From assembly GCA_951406725.2 (NCBI GenBank), contig OX597818.1:74772001-74836000 (forward strand): DNA of 64,000 bases, written 5' to 3'. Both the position numbers and the translations under genes were made by a program. This DNA comes from Octopus vulgaris (lineage: Eukaryota). This document shows, one piece after another, positions 1,644-64,000 of the stretch (the first letter of the stretch is position 1; each line of letters starts with the position of its first letter). Below the pieces are notes generated by a model. It was given only the letters and a program-made list of their open reading frames with translations, had not been told where the DNA came from and made no database searches.

Positions 1644-1847
1644 CTTTGTCCCCCAGTACCGCTTCACAAAGGTGTTAATTACTTATACTATTCGACAAAA
1701 TTGAATAGCATAAGTACCAGAATTAAAAATAAATATTGGAGTCAATCAATTCGACTAAAACATGATGCTAGATAGATAGATGCAAAAAATATATAATTTT
1801 CACAGCTACATTTATGTATGTATGTATATATATGTATATATACATAC

Positions 1848-1878
<31 letters not shown>

Positions 1879-2110
1879 CTAACAATATAGGATGAAGTCC
1901 CTTTCTCTACAGAAAAGGAATCCACCAGGAAGCGTGGGCAGTATATTTTAAAAAACCGTTACGGTTTAAGTATAAACATCATATAATTAAGGGCTAAAGA
2001 GGGTTATTCTAAAGCCAATACACTGATTTATCCACTTATAATCCGCTTGCTACAGCAGAATTGAAACTGAAAACGGGCAACTAACCTTTAGAAAATTTAA
2101 ATTTCGTTAT

Positions 2111-2171
2111 CTCTATATTGAATCAATTTCGAATTAATCTTATAAAAAGATATATTCTTTCTTCAGTAGAG
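2111..2171 (-). ncRNA. Type I hammerhead ribozyme
   Basis: Reverse complement: ctcta-CTGAAGA-aagaatatatctt..aagattaattc-GAAA-ttga t tcaa-TA-tagag; perfect 5-bp stem I, AUA triplet. Confidence 0.85.
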
Positions 2172-2515
2172 CTTTCGATGGGATATAAATAAAATACTCA
2201 CGTATGATCATGGAAAAAGCACAAGCTAAAAACATAGCTACACTTGAGTACATCACTTATACCTAAAAATAAAAATTATTTGGTCAGCCTCAGAAACAAC
2301 GTCTTGACCTTTCGCCGCTACAAATTGTAATGGTTACCGGTCCTCCCGTAGCAAGCAGCGAGTTTACTACTAACAATATAGGATGAAGTCCCTTTCTCTA
2401 CAGAAAAGGAATCCATCAGGAAGCGTGGGCAGTATATTTAAAAAAACCGTTACGGTTGAAGTATAAACATCATATAATTAAGGGCTAAAGAGGGTTATTT
2501 ATATCCCATCGAAAG

Positions 2516-2577
2516 CTCTACTGAAGAAAGAATATATCTTTTTATAAGATTAATTCCGAAATTGATTCAATATAGAG
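2516..2577 (+). ncRNA. Type I hammerhead ribozyme (inverted copy of 2111..2171)
   Basis: ctcta 2516-20; CTGAAGA 2521-27; GAAA 2558-61; ttgattcaa; TA 2571-72; tagag 2573-77. Confidence 0.85.
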
Positions 2578-2695
2578 ATAACGAAATTAAAATTTTCTAA
2601 AGGTTAGTTGCCCGTTTTCAGTCTCAATTCTCCTGTAGCAAGCGGATTATAAGTGGATAAATCAGTGTATTGGCTTTAGAATAACCCTCTTTAGC

Positions 2696-2754
<59 letters not shown>

Positions 2755-3221: not shown

Positions 3222-3272
<51 letters not shown>

Positions 3273-3383
3273 CACACATCAAATATAGGATAAAAGTTTT
3301 CGAAAAAAATTCTATCAATGGCCAGCATATTAAAAATTTCCTTTAAAGGTTAAATTTATAAACAAGGGCAAAAAATTTTTCTA

Positions 3384-3750
3384 ATGCCAAATATGCCGAA
3401 AATAGACACATCGTCAATAACCATATACTTCATCACTATAAGGACGCGTCTCGAAGAAAGCCGACAGAAATTACTAAGAAATTCTGTTATTATCGTATCG
3501 GACCCGATTTCAGAGTTAATTCATAAGAACCTTCTCTTCTTCAGCGATAAATGCAGCAAAGAAATAAATGAAATACTTATACCCATGGAAGAAGCAAACA
3601 CTAAGTCATGAGCACAATTAAGTACCCCAAATATATCCAAAATCGAAATTCTCCAGCACACCGCGAGACACGGGTGATCGGACTGAAAACTCTCATAGAG
3701 TGAGAGAGTCCGGAAATGAACACTATTAAATTTACATCTAACATAGGAAA
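3384..3750 (+). pseudogene. Possible degenerate PLE N-terminal region
   Basis: 'FFSDKCSKE..ILIP' loosely resembles the H..FL..C....IPKG N-terminal motif of PLE ORFs; interrupted by stops. Confidence 0.3.
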
Positions 3751-3754
3751 AAAT

Positions 3755-4476
3755 GTTTAATAGTTGGAAGAAGACAGTCTGGGACAAATGCTTCTTTTGG
3801 TTGTCTCCACACATATAGTCGGCCGGTGGTTGGAAATAAAGTAAAGGATGACTCGTCCGAGAAAATAACATTCTTCCACTGCTCTAGTGACCGATTCTGT
3901 ATGTTTTTACTCCACTCTAAACGCTTTACAACCTTTATTTTTGAAAGTAGTGTTTTTTTCTGATTGCAGTCCTCTCGTGATAACTGGCTTTGTGCAGCTC
4001 CCGGCGAACAAGTCTTGGGAAAACTGGGTTCTCGAGTTGTTCATTAAGCTCTGTATCCTTGTGTTACTTTCTAACAATTCGCGTAAGAGTCCGACGGTCT
4101 CTAACTGAAAATTTTGATTTTCTTCCGGAGTTTTGTTTCGACGAGGAGGTTTTTCTCTCTTTCTCAAAGGTTGTCATTACTTTCGAGACAGTACTTCTTG
4201 ATACATCAAACATTTCGGCTGTTTCCGTTACGCTAGCGCCTACCATAGGAGCACCAACAATTTGGCCTCTTTGAAAGTCGATCTGTAATTTTAATAAATT
4301 TTAAATACCTTTTTCTGATGGTATCTGAAAAGAAAGAGCAATTTTAGCAAAACATATTAAGCAACGCTAATAATAAATGAAAATACATAAAAATAAACAA
4401 AATTTTGACGGTTTTATATAGATATTTCAAAATTATGATGCTATGATGCTAGGTGTTTCCATTATTTTGTCTAATC

Positions 4477-9825: not shown

Positions 9826-10592
9826 AATTGAGGGAAACAGAGGGATTTTTAATTGCAGCACAAGACCAAAGCCTCCCCACCAGAAATTACCAAAAACATG
9901 TAATGAAAAGAAATATTACAAGTAACTGCAGAGTATGTGGAGATGGACAAGAAACAATAAATCATATTATCTCTAGCTGCCCAGTCCTGGCTAAGAAGGA
10001 ATATATTCACAGACATGACAGAGTTGGAACCTACATACATTGGAAGCTATGCCAACATTATGGAATAACAACAGAAAAAAGATGGTATAGGCACACACCA
10101 GAAAAGGTCACAGAAAACGAGAAAGCAACCATACTCTGGGATATGCCGATACACACAGATAGAGAAATTAAGGCCAACAGACCAGATATAGTTGTCAGAG
10201 ATCATGAAGAAAAAAATGCTTTCTAATTGATGTATCAATACCGGCAGATGACAACGTGTCTCTAAAAGAAATGGAGAAACTCTCAAAATACAAAGACCTG
10301 GAAATAGAGGTAACTAGAATGTGGAACCTGAAAACAGAAACAATTCCTATCATAGTAGGTGCATTAGGCATGATAAAAAAATATTCAGACAAATACATAA
10401 CAAAAACACCAGGACTTACAAACACATATAACATACAGAAAATTGCACTACTAGGCACTGCACACATCCTACGCAGAACACTTTCCATACAATAACCATC
10501 AGAGCATCACAACAAATCACAGCACATACCCAAGGCACACAGAGCTGCGCTCGGTAGTGAAGTGAAGGCACGCTATAAAAATAAAACTACTG
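9826..10592 (+). mobile_element. R4/Dong-clade non-LTR retrotransposon 3' end (CCHC knuckle and restriction-like endonuclease), one frameshift
   Basis: ETEGFLIAAQDQ, CRVC...ETINHIISSC, RHD.V, NRPDIVV, IDVSIP, EKLSKYKDL, PIIVGALG, QKIALLGTAHILR; frameshift at the poly-A near 10210; 3' end runs into (TAA)/(TAG)n. Confidence 0.92.
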
Positions 10593-25913: not shown

Positions 25914-28113
25914 GAAGTAGGAGGTTGAAAACTGCACAAGAAGTCGCAGCGCTTTCTGGGCGATTGCAGGATATTCCTTTTCAACCAGCAACCAAACTGC
26001 ATTCAGGTAAAGCTCAGAATGCTTCAAATGTAATGTTCTGTTTATTTAAAACACTGGCAAGTTCTTCTTCTTCTGTTAATGTGAACTGTTCTTCAAATGG
26101 CTCAAATTCCACAAATGGGTCATACTGGTCAACAGATATCGATGGAAAATATTTGTCAAGATTTGTTAACAAAGTGTGCAAATAGTTCAAAATCAGTAGC
26201 GCAGTTTCTTGACAATTCCTTTTAAAAACACTTCCAAATTTCCTACAGCTATGCGTTTCTTCCATATTGTCAATTTCTTCTGAAAAGCATTTATTTTGTC
26301 AGTAGAAGACAAGATATTTTCGTTCCTGCCCTGCTTGCCATTGTTCAAGAGGCTTAGCTCATGAAATATATCGGCAAGATATGCTAACTTGGAACACCAA
26401 TGGTCATCACTCAAACATTCTACAAAGTCTTTCAGGTTTTCTTGGAAACAAAAGGTCAATAACTCTTCTCTTAATTGGTAGAAACGAGAAAATACTTTTT
26501 CTCTTGACAACCATCGTATTTCTGTGTGCTGGATTAAGGTGGTATGGTCTGCGCCCATACCCACACAAAGTTTCGCAAACTGTCGACATTTAAGTGGCCT
26601 CATTTTGAAGTAATTATCTATTTTCACTACCATATCCAATGCAGATTTTTGTTCAGATCCAAGCGTTTTAGCAACTAGTGCTTCTCTATGAATGAAACAT
26701 TTGGATTTTATTTTTGTACCAAAGTGGACAAAGCCTTTAAGACATCCTGTCATTGCAGGGGCACCATCTGTACAAATACCAACGCAGTTTTTCCAGTTCA
26801 ATCCACAATACTCTAAGTATGAATTTAAAACATCAAATACATCTTGTCCTTTTCTTGTTTCTGGCAACTCTTTGCAACACAGGACGTCTTCTACAATAGC
26901 TTCATCATTAATAAAACGAACAAATACAAGGAGTTGTGATTTGCCAGTGATGTCTGTACTCTCATCAACTTATGTTTCAGTATTTTTGACTTAATATTGC
27001 ACTCAATGTCTCCTGACTTATTATGTTGTCAGAAGGTGGAATTTTATTCAGCTCTGATGCAGCATCCTCTCCAAACATTATCCTCACTATCTACTGGCAT
27101 GCAGGTAAAATTACAGTTTCAGCGATGGTATGAGATTTCATTTTTCTTGCAACTATCTCCGCCACAGCATAACTTGCTTCTTGTCCTTTGTCACTCAACT
27201 TGAACTTTTTGGCAAACATAGAAACTTGCCTTTTATTAAATGCCAATTCTCTTTTAAAATATTGTTCTTTTTTGCCTGACAACTCTGAATGTTTAGTCGT
27301 TAAGTGTCGTTTCAGTTTGGCTGGTGCCATAGCACTATTAGCCAGCTTCTCCCCAGAAACAGTACACAAAGGTGAAGGGCAGTCTGGGTTTCCAGTTCAA
27401 GTAAATCCCAGAGCTATATAGTTTTCACAATATTGACGAACTTTTAGTTGCAGGTTAATTCCATCATTTCTTGGTAATTTCGACGAGGCAACATCACTGG
27501 CAGTTGCTGCAGCTTCAACAGACTGTCTCAGACCCTGCATCTGTTCATCTGTATCTGCCTTACGTTTTTTTTTTCAGAAATCTATCCATACTTGTAAGGC
27601 AGTAAGCAGAATTGTATATATATATAAAAGCAAACCTAATAGTGGCAGGACAAAATGATCTTTAAAGTGTAGCGAGTTTAATGATGTAAAATTTAGCTTT
27701 TTTTATTAATGCTTTTTAGCAATAGGTATTTGATTATATTTAAATAATATGCATATAATAATAAAATAGATTTTCGGATTTGAATTTAAAATAGTTATTT
27801 GTTCATTGGCTCAAGTTTCTCATCGAGTTTTTGATGAGAATAAATGTAATCTATTCAAACTAAAATTTTTTAAATACATGTTTTATAATAACTGTAGATG
27901 CAAGAATAAAATTGCATATGTACGTGACAATTTTTTTACACTTTGAGTTTTTATTGTAAATAAATCTGAACATGAGTATTTTCATTTCATTAATAAAATG
28001 CTGGGTTTTTTTTTTTTTTTTTGTGCATAAGACAAATTATTGCACAAGGGTTCCTCGAGCCAGTGGAATGTTTTCTTGGGGTTCCGCTCCAGCAAAAGGT
28101 TTGAAAAGCACTG
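25914..28113 (-). mobile_element. hAT Buster-family transposon (5' TIR present, frameshifted transposase)
   Basis: TIR cagtgcttttcaaacc at 28113; MDRFLKK start at 27589; BED-like LANSAMAPAKLKRHL..KH; DESTD; ICTDGAPAM; CFIHREAL; TEIRWLS; LAYLADIF; FSTSY.C. Confidence 0.92.
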
Positions 28114-44137: not shown

Positions 44138-44139
<2 letters not shown>

Positions 44140-45462
44140 GGAGTAAACACATAAATGTGAAATAAGGTGGAAAAAGAGTACTCAAATACCAGTGGTAGAG
44201 TAATATGCTTTATTTTAAGCAGCAGAAAATTCAACAAAATCTGTTACTCTGAGTTTCTCGTTGCCGTTCATCAGACAGTTTTTGCTAGAATGGAACATAT
44301 ATATTAATTCAATCTATACTCTTACAAACGCTACACCTTTAAAAAGAAATGAACTTGTTTGATTGGCCCTTTAGAAAAACCGGTCAATCTTCGAGAGATT
44401 AACAAAAAGGTCAAAAATATATGTATATATATATAAAAAAAACTTATAAAAATTATAAAATCCGAGGAAAAAACCGAGGAAAAAACCTATTGCCGTTAAT
44501 GAAGACAGTACAAATTAATGCATAGAAATTAAACCTGTTATAAATACTGCAATACATATTTATATTAAAATCCACATATATATATCAACATACACAAAAG
44601 GATGCGCGTAAACGCCATACATACATATACAGACGTATGAATATGAATCTAAATTATACACATAAAAGCATGTGTACATATATTCACGCAAACCGTCTCG
44701 CACGCAAGCTAAAATTCATCTATGTAGCAATTCTCATATACTGAGCAAGGAGGGGGAACGAAAGAAAGGGAAAGAGAGAAAAAGGAACGAAGGAGGGGTG
44801 GGGAAAAAACTTGTAGCGATATTATTGGCATCTATAGAGGCCAGTATACATACACAAGTTTGAATTGATACATATACATACCGTCGTGTGTATGCGTGCT
44901 GAAGCACAAGCATACTTTCACTTACACATACACAGATACGCATGCTTACAAATACATATGCTTTGCTATACACAAACTTATATAAACATTCTAAATTTGA
45001 CAACATTGCTTTTTTTTAAAAAAAAAAAAACATTGCTTTTAAAAAATGGGTGCATTAATAAAAATATATACGAAAGACATATAAAATAAAATATAACATC
45101 CTATTTTGGGTCATTTATAAATAATCAAGGTAATATAAATAATCAAGGTAATCTTATGCAATACAATAACATGAAAACTAAGTTTGTAGGTTTTTCCTAA
45201 TATATATGTAGAAACAATAAGACTTTGCTATAGGTCCGTCGTAGCGCTCAAGAGTCAAAATCAAAATCAAAAAATCAAAATACAAAATATATACTCTATC
45301 CATATGGTATATTTATATTCGACATTTTAAATTTAGCCGTGTGCCTACATAAGTTCATTAATTCACTTCTTTGATTCAAAGAATTATTGTCTTTGAATAA
45401 TATGTGCATTTTTTCTAATAAGCAAAGCCTGCACTTGAAATTATATTTGTAAGCTCCATGCC

Positions 45463-45463
<1 letters not shown>
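44138..45463 (-). repeat. Inverted copy of the Naiad-like PLE 3' end and tail
   Basis: 44208..45463 is the reverse complement of 46720..47972 with only a few substitutions, plus 70 extra tail nt ending at (TA)n. Confidence 0.95.
44230..44290 (-). ncRNA. Minimal hammerhead ribozyme (copy of 47890..47950)
   Basis: Reverse complement of the 47890 motif. Confidence 0.85.
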
Positions 45464-45504
<41 letters not shown>

Positions 45505-45507
45505 CAA

Positions 45508-45540
<33 letters not shown>

Positions 45541-45652
45541 CATACATACGTACATACATGCATACATACATGCATACATACGTACATACATACATACATA
45601 CATACATACATACATACATACATACATACATACATGCATACATACATACATT

Positions 45653-46887
45653 AAGAAGACTGACGATTCTCTTTTCGATGTACCGATGGGGGCATACGAC
45701 GGGGCTGAATTATGTATGCTCATAGGAGCCTTTATTCTCCATAATCTAAAAATAGAATTCCCATTTATAGATGCAGGTCTATATAGGGATGACGGCCTTA
45801 TAGCCACGCATAATCTAAACGGCCATGAATCAGATAGACTTAGGAAGGACCTTATAGCTTTCTTTCAAAGGATGGGCTTACGGATTACGATAGATACTAA
45901 CCTGAATAGTGTAGATTTTTTAGACGTAAATTTTAATGTAAGATCGGATAGATTTAAACCTTTCCGTAAGCCCAATGAAAAGCTATCGTATATTAGCAAA
46001 GATTCGAACCATCCACCAGTTATCCTTAGCAACTTAGTCAGCAATGTAGGTAGAAGAATATCTTCAATTTCTTCGGACGAGGCAGCATTCCATAATGCTG
46101 CACCTTATTACGATAGCGCATTAAAGAATAGTGGATTCTCGGAGAAGATCCAGTTCAACCAGCTTAATGCTAATAATAATGCTGCACGAAGAACTAGGAC
46201 CAGGAAAGTTTTGTGGTTCAACCCGGCTTTCAATTTGGCCGTAAAGACTAATATAGGTAAGGAATTTTTGAGATTAGTCTCTAAGCATTTTAGGCAGGGT
46301 CATAAATTCTACAGAATATTTAATAGAAGAACCCTGAAGGTTAGCTATTCTTGTTGCAGAAATTTCGCCTCTTACATTAGCCAACATAATAGGAAGCTAA
46401 TTGAGATTAGACATGGTGCCGAGCCCATTAAGAAATGTAATTTCAAAAACGAAAGCTCCTGTCCGTTAGAAGGGAAATGTCTAGTGAAAGGAGTAGTTTA
46501 TAGAGCCAAGGTGCAAGTGGAAGGCTCATCGGAATACAAGACATACACAGGGGCTTCAGAAAATTCATTTAAAACAAGATTTTATTCTCATAAGAATTCT
46601 TTTAAATACCCAGAGAATAGAAAGAAAACCAGCCTAGCAAAATATGTCTGGGAACTAAAAGAAAAAAAGCCCCACCTTTCAACGTGACATGGAGCATTCT
46701 GGACAGGGCGGCACCATACAGGCATGGAGCTTACAAATATAATTTCAAGTGCAGGCTTTGCTTATTAGAAAAAATGCACATATTATTCAAAGACAATAAT
46801 TCTTTGAATCAAAGAAGTGAATTAATGAACTTATGTAGGCACACGGCTAAATTTAAAATGTCGAATATAAATATACCATATGGATAG
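45653..46887 (+). CDS. 5'-truncated Naiad-like Penelope RT-GIY-YIG ORF with one frameshift near 46670
   Basis: FDVPMGAYDGAE, GLYRDDGL, VDFLDV, PFRKPN, SNHPP, WFNP.F, KVSYSC, CN..N..SCPLEGKC, VVY...YTG, FKTRF..H, CRLCLLEK, LN.RSEL..LCRH. Confidence 0.93.
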
Positions 46888-47889
46888 AGTATATATTTTG
46901 TATTTTGATTTTTTGATTTTGATTTTGACTCTTGAGCGCTACGACGGACCTATAGCAAAGTCTTATTGTTTCTACATATATATTAGGAAAAACCTACAAA
47001 CTTTGTTTTCATGTTATTGTATTGCATAAGATTACCTTGATTATTTATATTACCTTGATTATTTATAAATGACCCAAAATAGGATGTTATATTATATTTT
47101 ATGTCTTTCGTATATATTTTTATTAATGCACCCATTTTTTAAAAGCAATGTTTTTTTTTTAAAAAAAAAAGCAATGTTGTCAAATTTAGAATGTTTATAT
47201 AAGTTTGTGTATAGCAAAGCATATGTATTTGTAAGCATGCGTATCTGTGTATGTGTAAGTGAAAGTATGCTTGTGCTTAAGCACGCATACACACGACGGT
47301 ATGTATATGTATCAATTCAAACTTGTGTATGTATACTGGCCTCTATAGATGCCAATAATATCGCTACAAGTTTTTTCCCCACCCCTCCTTCGTTCCTTTT
47401 TCTCTCTTTCCCTTTCTTTCGTTCCCCCTCCTTGCTCAGTATATGAGAATTGCTACATAGATGAATTTTAGCTTGCGTGCGAGACGGTTTGCGTGAATAT
47501 ATGTACACATGCTTTTATGTGTATAATTTAGATTCATATTCATACGTCTGTATATGTATGTATGGCGTTTACGCGCATCCTTTTGTGTATGTTGATATAT
47601 ATATGTGGATTTTAATATAAATATGTATTGCAGTATTTATAACAGGTTTAATTTCTATGCATTAATTTGTACTGTCTTCATTAACGGCAATAGGTTTTTT
47701 CCTCGGTTTTTTCCTCGGATTTTATAATTTTTATAAGTTTTTTTTATATATATATACATATATTTTTGACCTTTTTGTTAATCTCTCGAAGATTGACCGG
47801 TTTTTCTAAAGGGCCAATCAAACAAGTTCATTTCTTTTTAAAGGTGTAGCGTTTGTAAGAGTATAGATTGAATTAATATATATGTTCCA

Positions 47890-47950
47890 TTCTAGCAAAA
47901 ACTGTCTGATGAACGGCAACGAGAAACTCAGAGTAACAGATTTTGTTGAA
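47890..47950 (+). ncRNA. Minimal type I hammerhead ribozyme in the PLE tail
   Basis: ttctagcaaaaactgt-CTGATGA-a-cg[gcaa]cg-a-GAAA-ctc a gag-TA-acagattttgttgaa; GUA triplet, long stem I, GNRA-capped 2-bp stem II. Confidence 0.85.
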
Positions 47951-47983
47951 TTTTCTGCTTCTTAAAATAAAGTATATATATAT

Positions 47984-57626: not shown

Positions 57627-58698
57627 GATATACCATGATGTACTGGTGATCTGATGAGCTAGCGTTCTTTACCTGCATTGATTTGTGAATATAAAATTGT
57701 ATTGATTACTGTGTAGCATGTATATTAGTACACGGAGAATACATATATAATCTTAGCGGTGTTAAGTGGTTAAATAGCCGTGCCCTACTCTCATACCTCC
57801 TGCCTATTTGTGGTTCATGTACTGATCATGAAATAATTTCATTTATTGCATCCTCTGGTTCTCATGGAAATCTTCAGAATACGCCTCTGTGTTTCATACA
57901 TACACAAACAGCCGTGTCACCTCCCTCAATAATATTGTTGCAAAACCTGATAGTTAACATTCGCAACAGAATATCTAACCTTTCTTCTTCTAAAGATATT
58001 TTGATAGGGCAGCCCTTTACTACAACAAAGTCCCAGCCAACAATAGCTTTAACGATTAATTATTTTACAACCCTTCTACTAATGATACGAATCATAATAA
58101 TTGACCTGCAAATAGACCTTGGAGAATAATTAGGTTCATTCACCCATTCTTTTCTATAAATTATAAAACTAGCATAAAGAAAAGATACCCATCTTTCTTA
58201 GATAAACAGTTTGCTGTAAATCAATTGTGCAAAAATTATTCAACAGACGCTTAATTAAATTATCATATACCGACAGCCTCGATATGAAGAGCATAGTTCC
58301 ACTGAGACACCACCAAGTATCTACTCCCAGTTATAAATGTAAAGACGCCGGAAAATGCCCACTCGACCAGGGGTGCATGATAAAATCCGTCATATATGAG
58401 GCAAAAGTTATAGATCCTCAAGCGGGCTCTGTTAACAGACCACATTGTAGTCTAACACAGAGACGTATTCTGAAGATTCCCATGAGAACCAGAGGATGCA
58501 ATAAATGAAATCATTTCATTATCAGTACATGAACCACAAATAGGCAGGAGGTATGAGAGTAAGGCACAGCTATTTATATATGTATTCTCCGTGTACTAAT
58601 ATACATGCTACGCAGTAATCAATACAATTTTATATTCACAAATCAATGCAGGTAAAGAACGCTAGCTCATCAGATCACCAGTACATCTTGGTTACATC
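57627..58698 (+). mobile_element. Degenerate Naiad-like PLE fragment with an inverted tail (arms 57627..57893 and 58454..58698)
   Basis: PPSI..NL..NIRNRISNLSS, IKLSY, CKDAGKCPLDQGC..KSVIYEAKV; arms are reverse-complementary. Confidence 0.82.
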
Positions 58699-63238: not shown

Positions 63239-64000
63239 CAGGAGTTGGACAAAATAATGGAAACGCTTTAAAATTTCAAACAAATTTATTTTAATATGAG
63301 GTACGACCGCCTTTGGCAGTAATTACAGCTTGAATCCTATGAGGTATTCATACAAAGTTTGAATTGTTTCCAAGGGAATTTTTGTCTATTCTTCAGCTAA
63401 AACAGTCTCTAGTTCTTGTAGCGATGATCAACTCCTTACTTGTTTTTTCTAAAATGCACCACAAATGTTAAATAATATTGAGCTCTGGGGATTGTTGTGG
63501 CCAGATAAGATGTTCAACTTTACTAGAATATTCCTTGTGGCATTTCGTAACAATTATAGCTGTGTGAATTGGTGCATTATCATTCTGAAACATTGCGTTT
63601 CCCTGCGGAAACAGTTCTGCAATCATAAGATGCATTTGATCACATAAAATGCTTAAGTAGTTTTGACCATTAATTCTGCCATGAAGGGAAACCATTGGTT
63701 TGGCGAATTTCCAAGATATAGCCCACCAGATCATCACAGATCCTCCTCCAAGTTTAACAGTTGGAAGAAGGCAGTCTGGGTCAAATGCTTCTTTTGGCTG
63801 TCTCCATACGTATACTTACCCTGTTGTCGGAAATAAGGCAAAGAATGACTCGTCCGAGAAAATAACATTTTCCCACTACTCTAGGATCAATTCGGTAAGT
63901 TTTTACTCCACTCTAAACGCTTTGCAACGTTAGCTTTTGAAAGCAGTGGTTTTCTAATTGCAGCCCTCCAATGAAATCCGGCTTTGTGCAGCTCCTGACG
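63239..64000 (-). mobile_element. Tc1-family transposon, 3' half (DDE domain), runs off the window
   Basis: FSDES, MIWWAIS, FQNDNAPIH, WPQQSPELNII; TIR caggagttggacaaaataatggaaac after TA. Confidence 0.9.

Follow-up and report, generated by a model that had tools for sequence, protein, structure and literature searches.

A two-armed 491-nt hammerhead unit in Octopus vulgaris, probably a non-LTR retrozyme inserted by a Penelope-like enzyme

As far as they have been tested, animal non-LTR retrozymes occur as RNA mainly in circular form (Cervera and de la Pena 2020, PMC7229834), and in coral, mussel and axolotl a host ligase has been shown to close the hammerhead-cut monomers. For the return of animal retrozymes to the genome, mobilization by Penelope-like elements (PLEs) from circular RNA was proposed in 2020 (PMC7229834) and has gained homology support in a 2026 preprint, whose authors propose both a PLE origin and PLE mobilization of non-LTR retrozymes, their evidence being co-occurrence and homology to pLTRs in Xenopus (Li, Clavereau and Pollet 2026, bioRxiv 10.64898/2026.07.22.740005). 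PLE insertions themselves have a characteristic anatomy, with a partial tandem, an inverted 5' arm, a one-sided tail and a (TA)n target, and non-autonomous PLEs with head-to-tail copies have already been described (PMC8557442). In work with a purified anole PLE, both strands of AT-rich DNA were cut and extended, and copying began inside the RNA, at two sites whose spacing equals the genomic tail; hammerhead cleavage was not needed in vitro, and unprocessed RNA was the main substrate (PMC11167929). Retrozyme, non-autonomous PLE, inverted arm and tail are thus each known separately. In the literature searched we found neither a cephalopod retrozyme nor a two-armed retrozyme insertion, and the supplements of PMC7229834 and of the preprint may list some.

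The locus described here lies in a window of 64,000 nt (Octopus vulgaris contig OX597818.1, positions 74,772,001 to 74,836,000, forward strand; all coordinates count from the first letter of the window). Its 491-nt hammerhead unit is, in our judgment and with good probability, a non-LTR retrozyme that was inserted by a borrowed PLE enzyme priming from both strands. The element occupies 821 nt, 1877-2697, with a (TA)n-type tract on either side (left, 1813-1878; right, 2698-2752; Table 1). A partial second pass through the unit follows the first at a spacing of 491 nt, with three mismatches at 1925, 1949 and 1967, and leads into an inverted arm of 203 nt, which matches 1991-2192 in reverse complement at 98.0% and differs from it by 3 substitutions and 1 indel. 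The direct and inverted blocks overlap by the 5 nt TTATT, and an overlap of at least that length has a probability of about 0.008 by base composition alone. Read as a circle the unit contains no ATG-initiated ORF longer than 37 aa and no stop-to-stop frame longer than 43 aa. All of this bears out the original prediction, which had described a 491-nt unit free of ORFs with a 132-nt overlap in tandem and an inverted 203-nt arm joined through TTATT, the whole between (TA)n tracts.

Table 1. Features of the two-armed element and of its diverged neighbor, in window coordinates
Feature	Positions	Strand	Basis or remark
Left (TA)n/(TATG)n tract	1813-1876	.	Probably where the long arm was targeted and primed
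491-nt ORF-less unit	1877-2367	-	RNA sense likely minus: period, fold z, hammerhead strand, no ORF above 43 codons
114-nt one-sided tail between two preferred 3' ends (~1877, ~1991)	1877-1990	-	Left end versus arm end; loose ends in other samples
Type I hammerhead	2111-2171	-	Descriptor search
Rod-shaped predicted fold with a 13-bp closing helix (2358-2346/2055-2043); within it the hammerhead plus a long hairpin at 2263-2182	2043-2358	-	Fold prediction
Partial second pass through the unit, 132 nt	2368-2499	-	97.7% identity to 1877-2008
5-nt microhomology joining the arms	2495-2499	.	Complementary 3' ends of the two putative cDNAs
Inverted arm, copy of 2192-1991	2495-2697	+	Rare alleles at 2050 and 2058 common to unit and arm
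Second hammerhead copy within the arm (core 2521, A17 2572, helix II base unpaired)	2516-2577	+	
Right (AT)n tract	2698-2752	.	Likely primer site of the short arm
Diverged relative, separate insertion: ~458-nt ORF-less unit plus ~25-nt overlap (core 3544, A17 3496)	3272-3758	-	

The element resembles the metazoan non-LTR retrozymes of PMC7229834 in being ORF-less, in its type I hammerhead and in a GC content below 50% (0.34 for the unit), and further in its self-paired predicted circle, its head-to-tail junction and the presence of PLEs in the same genome. The circular fold is strand-specific, with z -3.9 for the minus strand versus -0.6 for the plus strand (40 shuffles each). Judged from sequence, then, the retrozyme features that we tested are all in place: a type I motif, no coding capacity, a head-to-tail unit of a few hundred bp, GC below 50% and a self-paired fold. 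Unlike the retrozymes of that study the unit, at 491 nt, exceeds the range given there (150-450 bp), and the locus, known here from DNA alone, consists of 1.27 units plus an inverted arm and has no discernible target site duplication, both flanks being (TA)n. The unit does fall within the 51-972 bp of the retrozymes of Li et al. (2026), among which monomeric copies are common. These authors call a locus active when it has two consecutive complete units; the present locus fails that test, its direct array containing one hammerhead, and is best seen as a near-monomeric offspring copy rather than an active array. Where Li et al. argue from co-occurrence and pLTR homology, the evidence here is an insertion footprint, with no homologous pLTR found.

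That footprint is the one left by EN+ PLEs: partial tandem, inverted 5'-truncated arm, one-sided tail and microsatellite target. As in the PAc/Poseidon elements of Anolis (PMC11167929) and the Penelopes of Adineta (PMC3846280), there are signs of priming on both strands of an AT-rich target, of two internal starts that leave a one-sided tail, and of an inverted arm that has a few bases in common with the direct part. The element differs from these EN+ PLEs in having no ORF, a tail of ~114 nt rather than 30-40 nt and a longer, canonical hammerhead. The ORF for RT and GIY-YIG that lies between the pLTRs of an autonomous EN+ PLE is absent from it.

The hammerhead reads on the minus strand as helix I (2171-2167/2115-2111), the core CUGAAGA (2166-2160), helix II (2157-2154/2134-2131, plus a 5-bp extension), GAAA (2130-2127) and a helix III of 4 bp, with a predicted cut after A2116 in AUA, that is, between 2116 and 2115. 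An exact-core type I descriptor matches twice in the 64 kb, with cores at 2166 and 3544, both on the minus strand, and gives no match in 20 block-shuffled windows or in 5000 shuffles of the unit. Matches of a descriptor that tolerates two core mismatches were disregarded because it returns 1-8 per shuffled window. A single hammerhead had been claimed for the unit; this is right in that each unit holds one type I motif, and incomplete in that the inverted arm carries a second core (2521-2572, plus strand), which the descriptor does not report since the base of its helix II is unpaired. Helix II is weak at its base in both the unit and the arm copy, as in the axolotl HHR_Amex2 (PMC7229834), and the hammerhead fold of this copy lies 3.9 kcal/mol above the minimum-energy fold. 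Most of the depth in other material carries a different base at 2158 (34,323 of 39,148 in run X1, all in X10), and many contigs of the deep runs have an extra base after 2130. Taken together, these changes would give helix II a closing G-C pair, so that the hammerhead typical of the family is likely to be better than the copy at this locus.

Rfam at gathering scores gives no match in the window and three irrelevant weak matches in the element, a blank that carries little weight because Rfam also missed the other hammerhead-like motifs of the window. In a metagenome scan a 26-nt motif had no match, and a bare gapped core pattern had 33, none of the 33 with a helix I of at least 4 bp and none with BLAST similarity. 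When 38 variants are mapped onto the predicted structure, 18 keep a pair, 9 break one and 11 fall on unpaired bases, a weak result as it has no null model. By hand, the changes between the locus and the majority, read on the RNA strand, include 5 A>G against 4 U>C and thus lack the surplus that would mark RNA editing. At 2280-2370 and 1880-1945 we considered twister, HDV-like and type II/III readings by eye and dropped them. A stretch near 2337-2319, which we take to be PSE-like and hence a lead for an snRNA-type promoter, lacks conservation in the neighbor at 3272-3758. Runs X8 and X17 also have loose ends at 2096 and 2131, which belong to other families; these share the helix III and helix I portion of this hammerhead and differ on both sides of it.

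This neighbor, some 600 nt away and ~30% diverged, aligns with the unit end to end with a score of 214, compared with 118 +/- 10 for shuffles (maximum of 300, 159.5) and 143 for the best unrelated tile. Its start follows (AT)n and keeps the register of 1877, its first 24 nt recur 458 nt later (reached in 8 of 5000 shuffles), and it contains no ORF. The core and AUA site of its hammerhead are unchanged relative to the unit, and a comparison of helix pairs by hand finds 9 of 13 changed on both sides and none broken, to be read with the fact that the descriptor demands pairing and that the homology of the neighbor was found independently of it. The long hairpin at 2263-2182 forms here as well. 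A two-sequence alifold of unit and neighbor misaligned the hammerhead and so is no test of it. As modeled, the neighbor's hammerhead folds well and appears a better candidate for a cleavage assay than the 491-nt copy. Within the neighbor, at 3434-3461 on the minus strand, a GAGACGCGTC motif is followed by a UGAUGA-like motif, pieces of a hammerhead-like core in reverse order.

The window also contains other repeats. Between (TA)n tracts at ~1488-1660 lies a short repeat that we take to be a tRNA-derived SINE; it shares 15 nt with the unit (1535-1549 and 2279-2293, E 0.15), probably by chance. Tc1/mariner-like fragments at 3755-4001, the first of them adjoining the neighbor, and at 63468-63995 are 83% alike and give a weak match to DDE_3. 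A PLE-like endonuclease piece is found at 58206-58508, a zf-RVT LINE piece at 9828-10226 and, by eye, a hAT-like transposase at 26193-27396.

Runs under four organism labels contain the sequence. Five of them, from three labels, were compared with the unit in two registers, label D being left out; X2 and X17, which may be RNA, were taken as sequence only, and contig depth was not read as copy number. Coverage of the unit is complete (29 of 29 bins) in each of four runs and in both registers. The head-to-tail junction at 2367/2368 is spanned with at least 31 nt on each side by record 7 of X1 and by record 17 of X17 (358 nt, running through 2263-2499 and then 2017-2125), and is crossed by joints in X1 (two contigs) and X8 (one contig). 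The fraction of the compared sequence that passes into unlike DNA is 0 in X1, 0.01 in X10 and 0.02 in X8, and 0.13-0.16 in X2 and 0.36 in X17; the loose ends listed for the latter two resemble variants, flanking microsatellite or hammerhead families related to this one. Loose ends are listed for 24 of 138 and 24 of 116 rows. The contigs are short, none of those listed spans the unit, and no listed piece reaches 31 nt to both sides of the predicted cut site. Because the unit is covered, its junction is bridged under three labels and little unlike sequence adjoins it, the 491-nt ORF-less hammerhead unit is, on these sequences, a multi-copy family and not a local duplication.

The family bears directly on the reading in which the sequence is a pLTR of an autonomous PLE and the locus a one-off insertion, internally deleted or truncated. 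Partial tandem, inverted arm and tail are ordinary PLE anatomy, two truncated coding PLEs of such build lie in the window, and the loose ends listed cover just the fractions given above. Against this stand the head-to-tail junction in samples under three organism labels, the near absence of passage into unlike sequence in the deep runs, and the ~30%-diverged relative that closes in the same way with no ORF. We regard the pLTR reading as improbable, and its one-off form is already largely refuted. A coding parent of the family, if rare, may exist, since the contigs are short and the loose ends listed are a part of the total. The original prediction had staked itself against two outcomes, a duplication unique to this locus and copies always attached to a PLE ORF; the first fails on the junctions bridged in other samples and the second, as far as it could be tested, on the 0-0.02 of sequence passing into unlike DNA in the three deep runs.

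The same runs locate the ends of other copies. Loose ends in microsatellite occur at 1971/2462 in at least 9 and at least 8 contigs of X1, and at 2365-2375 (2365/2375 being equivalent to 1874/1884) in at least 2 contigs of X1 and at least 1 each of X2 and X17. The ends at 2365-2375 are the left end, 1877. Those at 1971/2462 are probably the arm end, ~1991, since a local alignment of the locus's own arm itself reaches 1971 through AT-rich sequence. In the sequences compared copies thus end at two points ~114 nt apart and not at random points. Variable start points, or free permutation of the unit, had been predicted, and the microsatellite loose ends contradict this part of the prediction, with two fixed, preferred ends in their place. 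Microhomology joins and inversions arise in DNA repair too, and the locus might be imagined as a DNA-level satellite or break-repair product (unequal crossover, fold-back) formed with no retrotransposition at all. A repair event, however, would not reuse fixed points, and here both ends lie in (TA)n, at ends shared with other copies, with a head-to-head polarity that matches PLEs; even granting the satellite-like expansion through unequal crossover that Li et al. (2026) discuss, we consider such an origin extremely unlikely.

Which PLE might have supplied the enzyme can be approached through the coding PLEs of the window. The one at 44139-47977 is 5'-truncated, with an ORF at 45494-46687, inverted arms of 1261 nt (99.2%), a one-sided tail of 64 nt, a hammerhead-like core at 47906 and (TA)n flanks, and by eye it matches the Hydra alignment of PMC8557442. 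The other, at ~250-1348, is also 5'-truncated and has a GIY-YIG ORF (320-1036, 73% to P0001) and a short inverted arm at 275-319; its hammerhead-like motif, near 1167-1196, is minimal and degenerate. The unit has no similarity to the 3' UTRs of either, and four short motifs are absent from the PMC8557442 supplement. A family of the Hydra clade is listed for Octopus bimaculoides (PMC8557442), and with these elements the unit shares the (TA)n target and a helix III of 3-4 bp; Hydra clade hammerheads, which have a full helix III, often carry an A or a U as base 17 and leave the foot of helix II partly unpaired, and the hammerhead of the unit may be likened to them in this. Consensus ends of the clade (PMC8557442) lie 30-48 nt after the cut in 10 of 24 and 88-153 nt after it in 11 of 24, two groups ~80 nt apart, which suggests long tails. 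Unlike the Hydra clade, the unit has a helix III beginning AU rather than AC, and ends 125-145 and 232-242 nt after the cut. A Hydra clade PLE is therefore our first guess for the partner, and a lead only.

L1-type twin priming also yields inversions, and a retrozyme-type RNA could have been mobilized by a LINE and not by a PLE. The element is devoid of poly(A) or of a LINE-like tail, and in its two internal ends in (TA)n and its head-to-head arms it agrees with PLE insertions, among them the Hydra-like one at 44139-47977. LINEs have been named as alternative mobilizers (PMC7229834); for this element we find them a very unlikely choice.

Insertion by a PLE may be envisaged in five steps. A tandem source locus would be transcribed from the minus strand, and its hammerheads are predicted to cut the transcript into 491-nt monomers that a host ligase closes. 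A PLE would next nick both (TA)n strands, by analogy with the anole PLE in vitro, and its RT would start inside the RNA at ~1877 and ~1991. The long cDNA, primed in the left tract, would run from 1877 to 2367 and on to 2499 (the RNA being the minus strand), and the short cDNA, primed in the right tract, from 1991 to 2192; the lengths as read from the DNA are 623 nt (1.27 units) and 203 nt, and both extend past the predicted cut site. The cDNA 3' ends would finally anneal over 5 nt, with repair filling the remainder. Since both cDNAs cross the predicted cut site, the template would have been continuous there. Unit and arm have the same alleles at 2050 and 2058, where ~98% of the depth in X1 and X10 reads otherwise, and this suggests one source for both; the internal differences, 3 in 132 and 4 in 203, are as expected for drift after insertion.

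The nature of that continuous template is a separate matter. Our tentative reading, to which we would not quite grant an even chance in its full form, is that a PLE, perhaps of the Hydra clade, primes both cut (TA)n strands at two fixed points ~114 nt apart on a single circular 491-nt RNA and reads round it. The same element could arise by the same twin priming from an uncut read-through multimer of a tandem locus, or from linear monomers joined by template jumps, with the hammerhead a passenger. An uncut multimer gives the same DNA, since the anole PLE uses unprocessed RNA: insertion was normal when its hammerhead was mutated, and none of the RNA-seq reads stopped at the cut site (PMC11167929). 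Moreover, 8 of 9 Xenopus retrozyme dimers stayed uncleaved in vitro (Li et al. 2026), the hammerhead of this copy is predicted to be weak, and 1.27 units fit within a dimer. On the other hand, all three helices have changed in a compensatory way between two families, which points to selection for cleavage, the tested animal retrozymes exist mainly as circles (PMC7229834), and the strand-specific self-paired fold is as in the circles of animal retrozymes. We hold the passenger account to be a real possibility that falls somewhat below an even chance. One locus cannot separate a circle from an uncut multimer; as modeled, a circular template is favored about as much as it is doubted. Of the original proposal, a non-LTR retrozyme cDNA made by a PLE in trans, the ORF-less hammerhead family and the Penelope-type anatomy endure, and the start points turn out to be fixed, not variable.

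The unit family offers a concrete substrate with a defined strand, a predicted cut site, two priming points and, adjoining it, a better-folding relative. Were priming on a circle to prove true, the locus would support, from genomic data, the circle-templated step that has been proposed for the retrozyme cycle and would name its two priming sites, and each two-armed insertion would be the record of one RNA circle.
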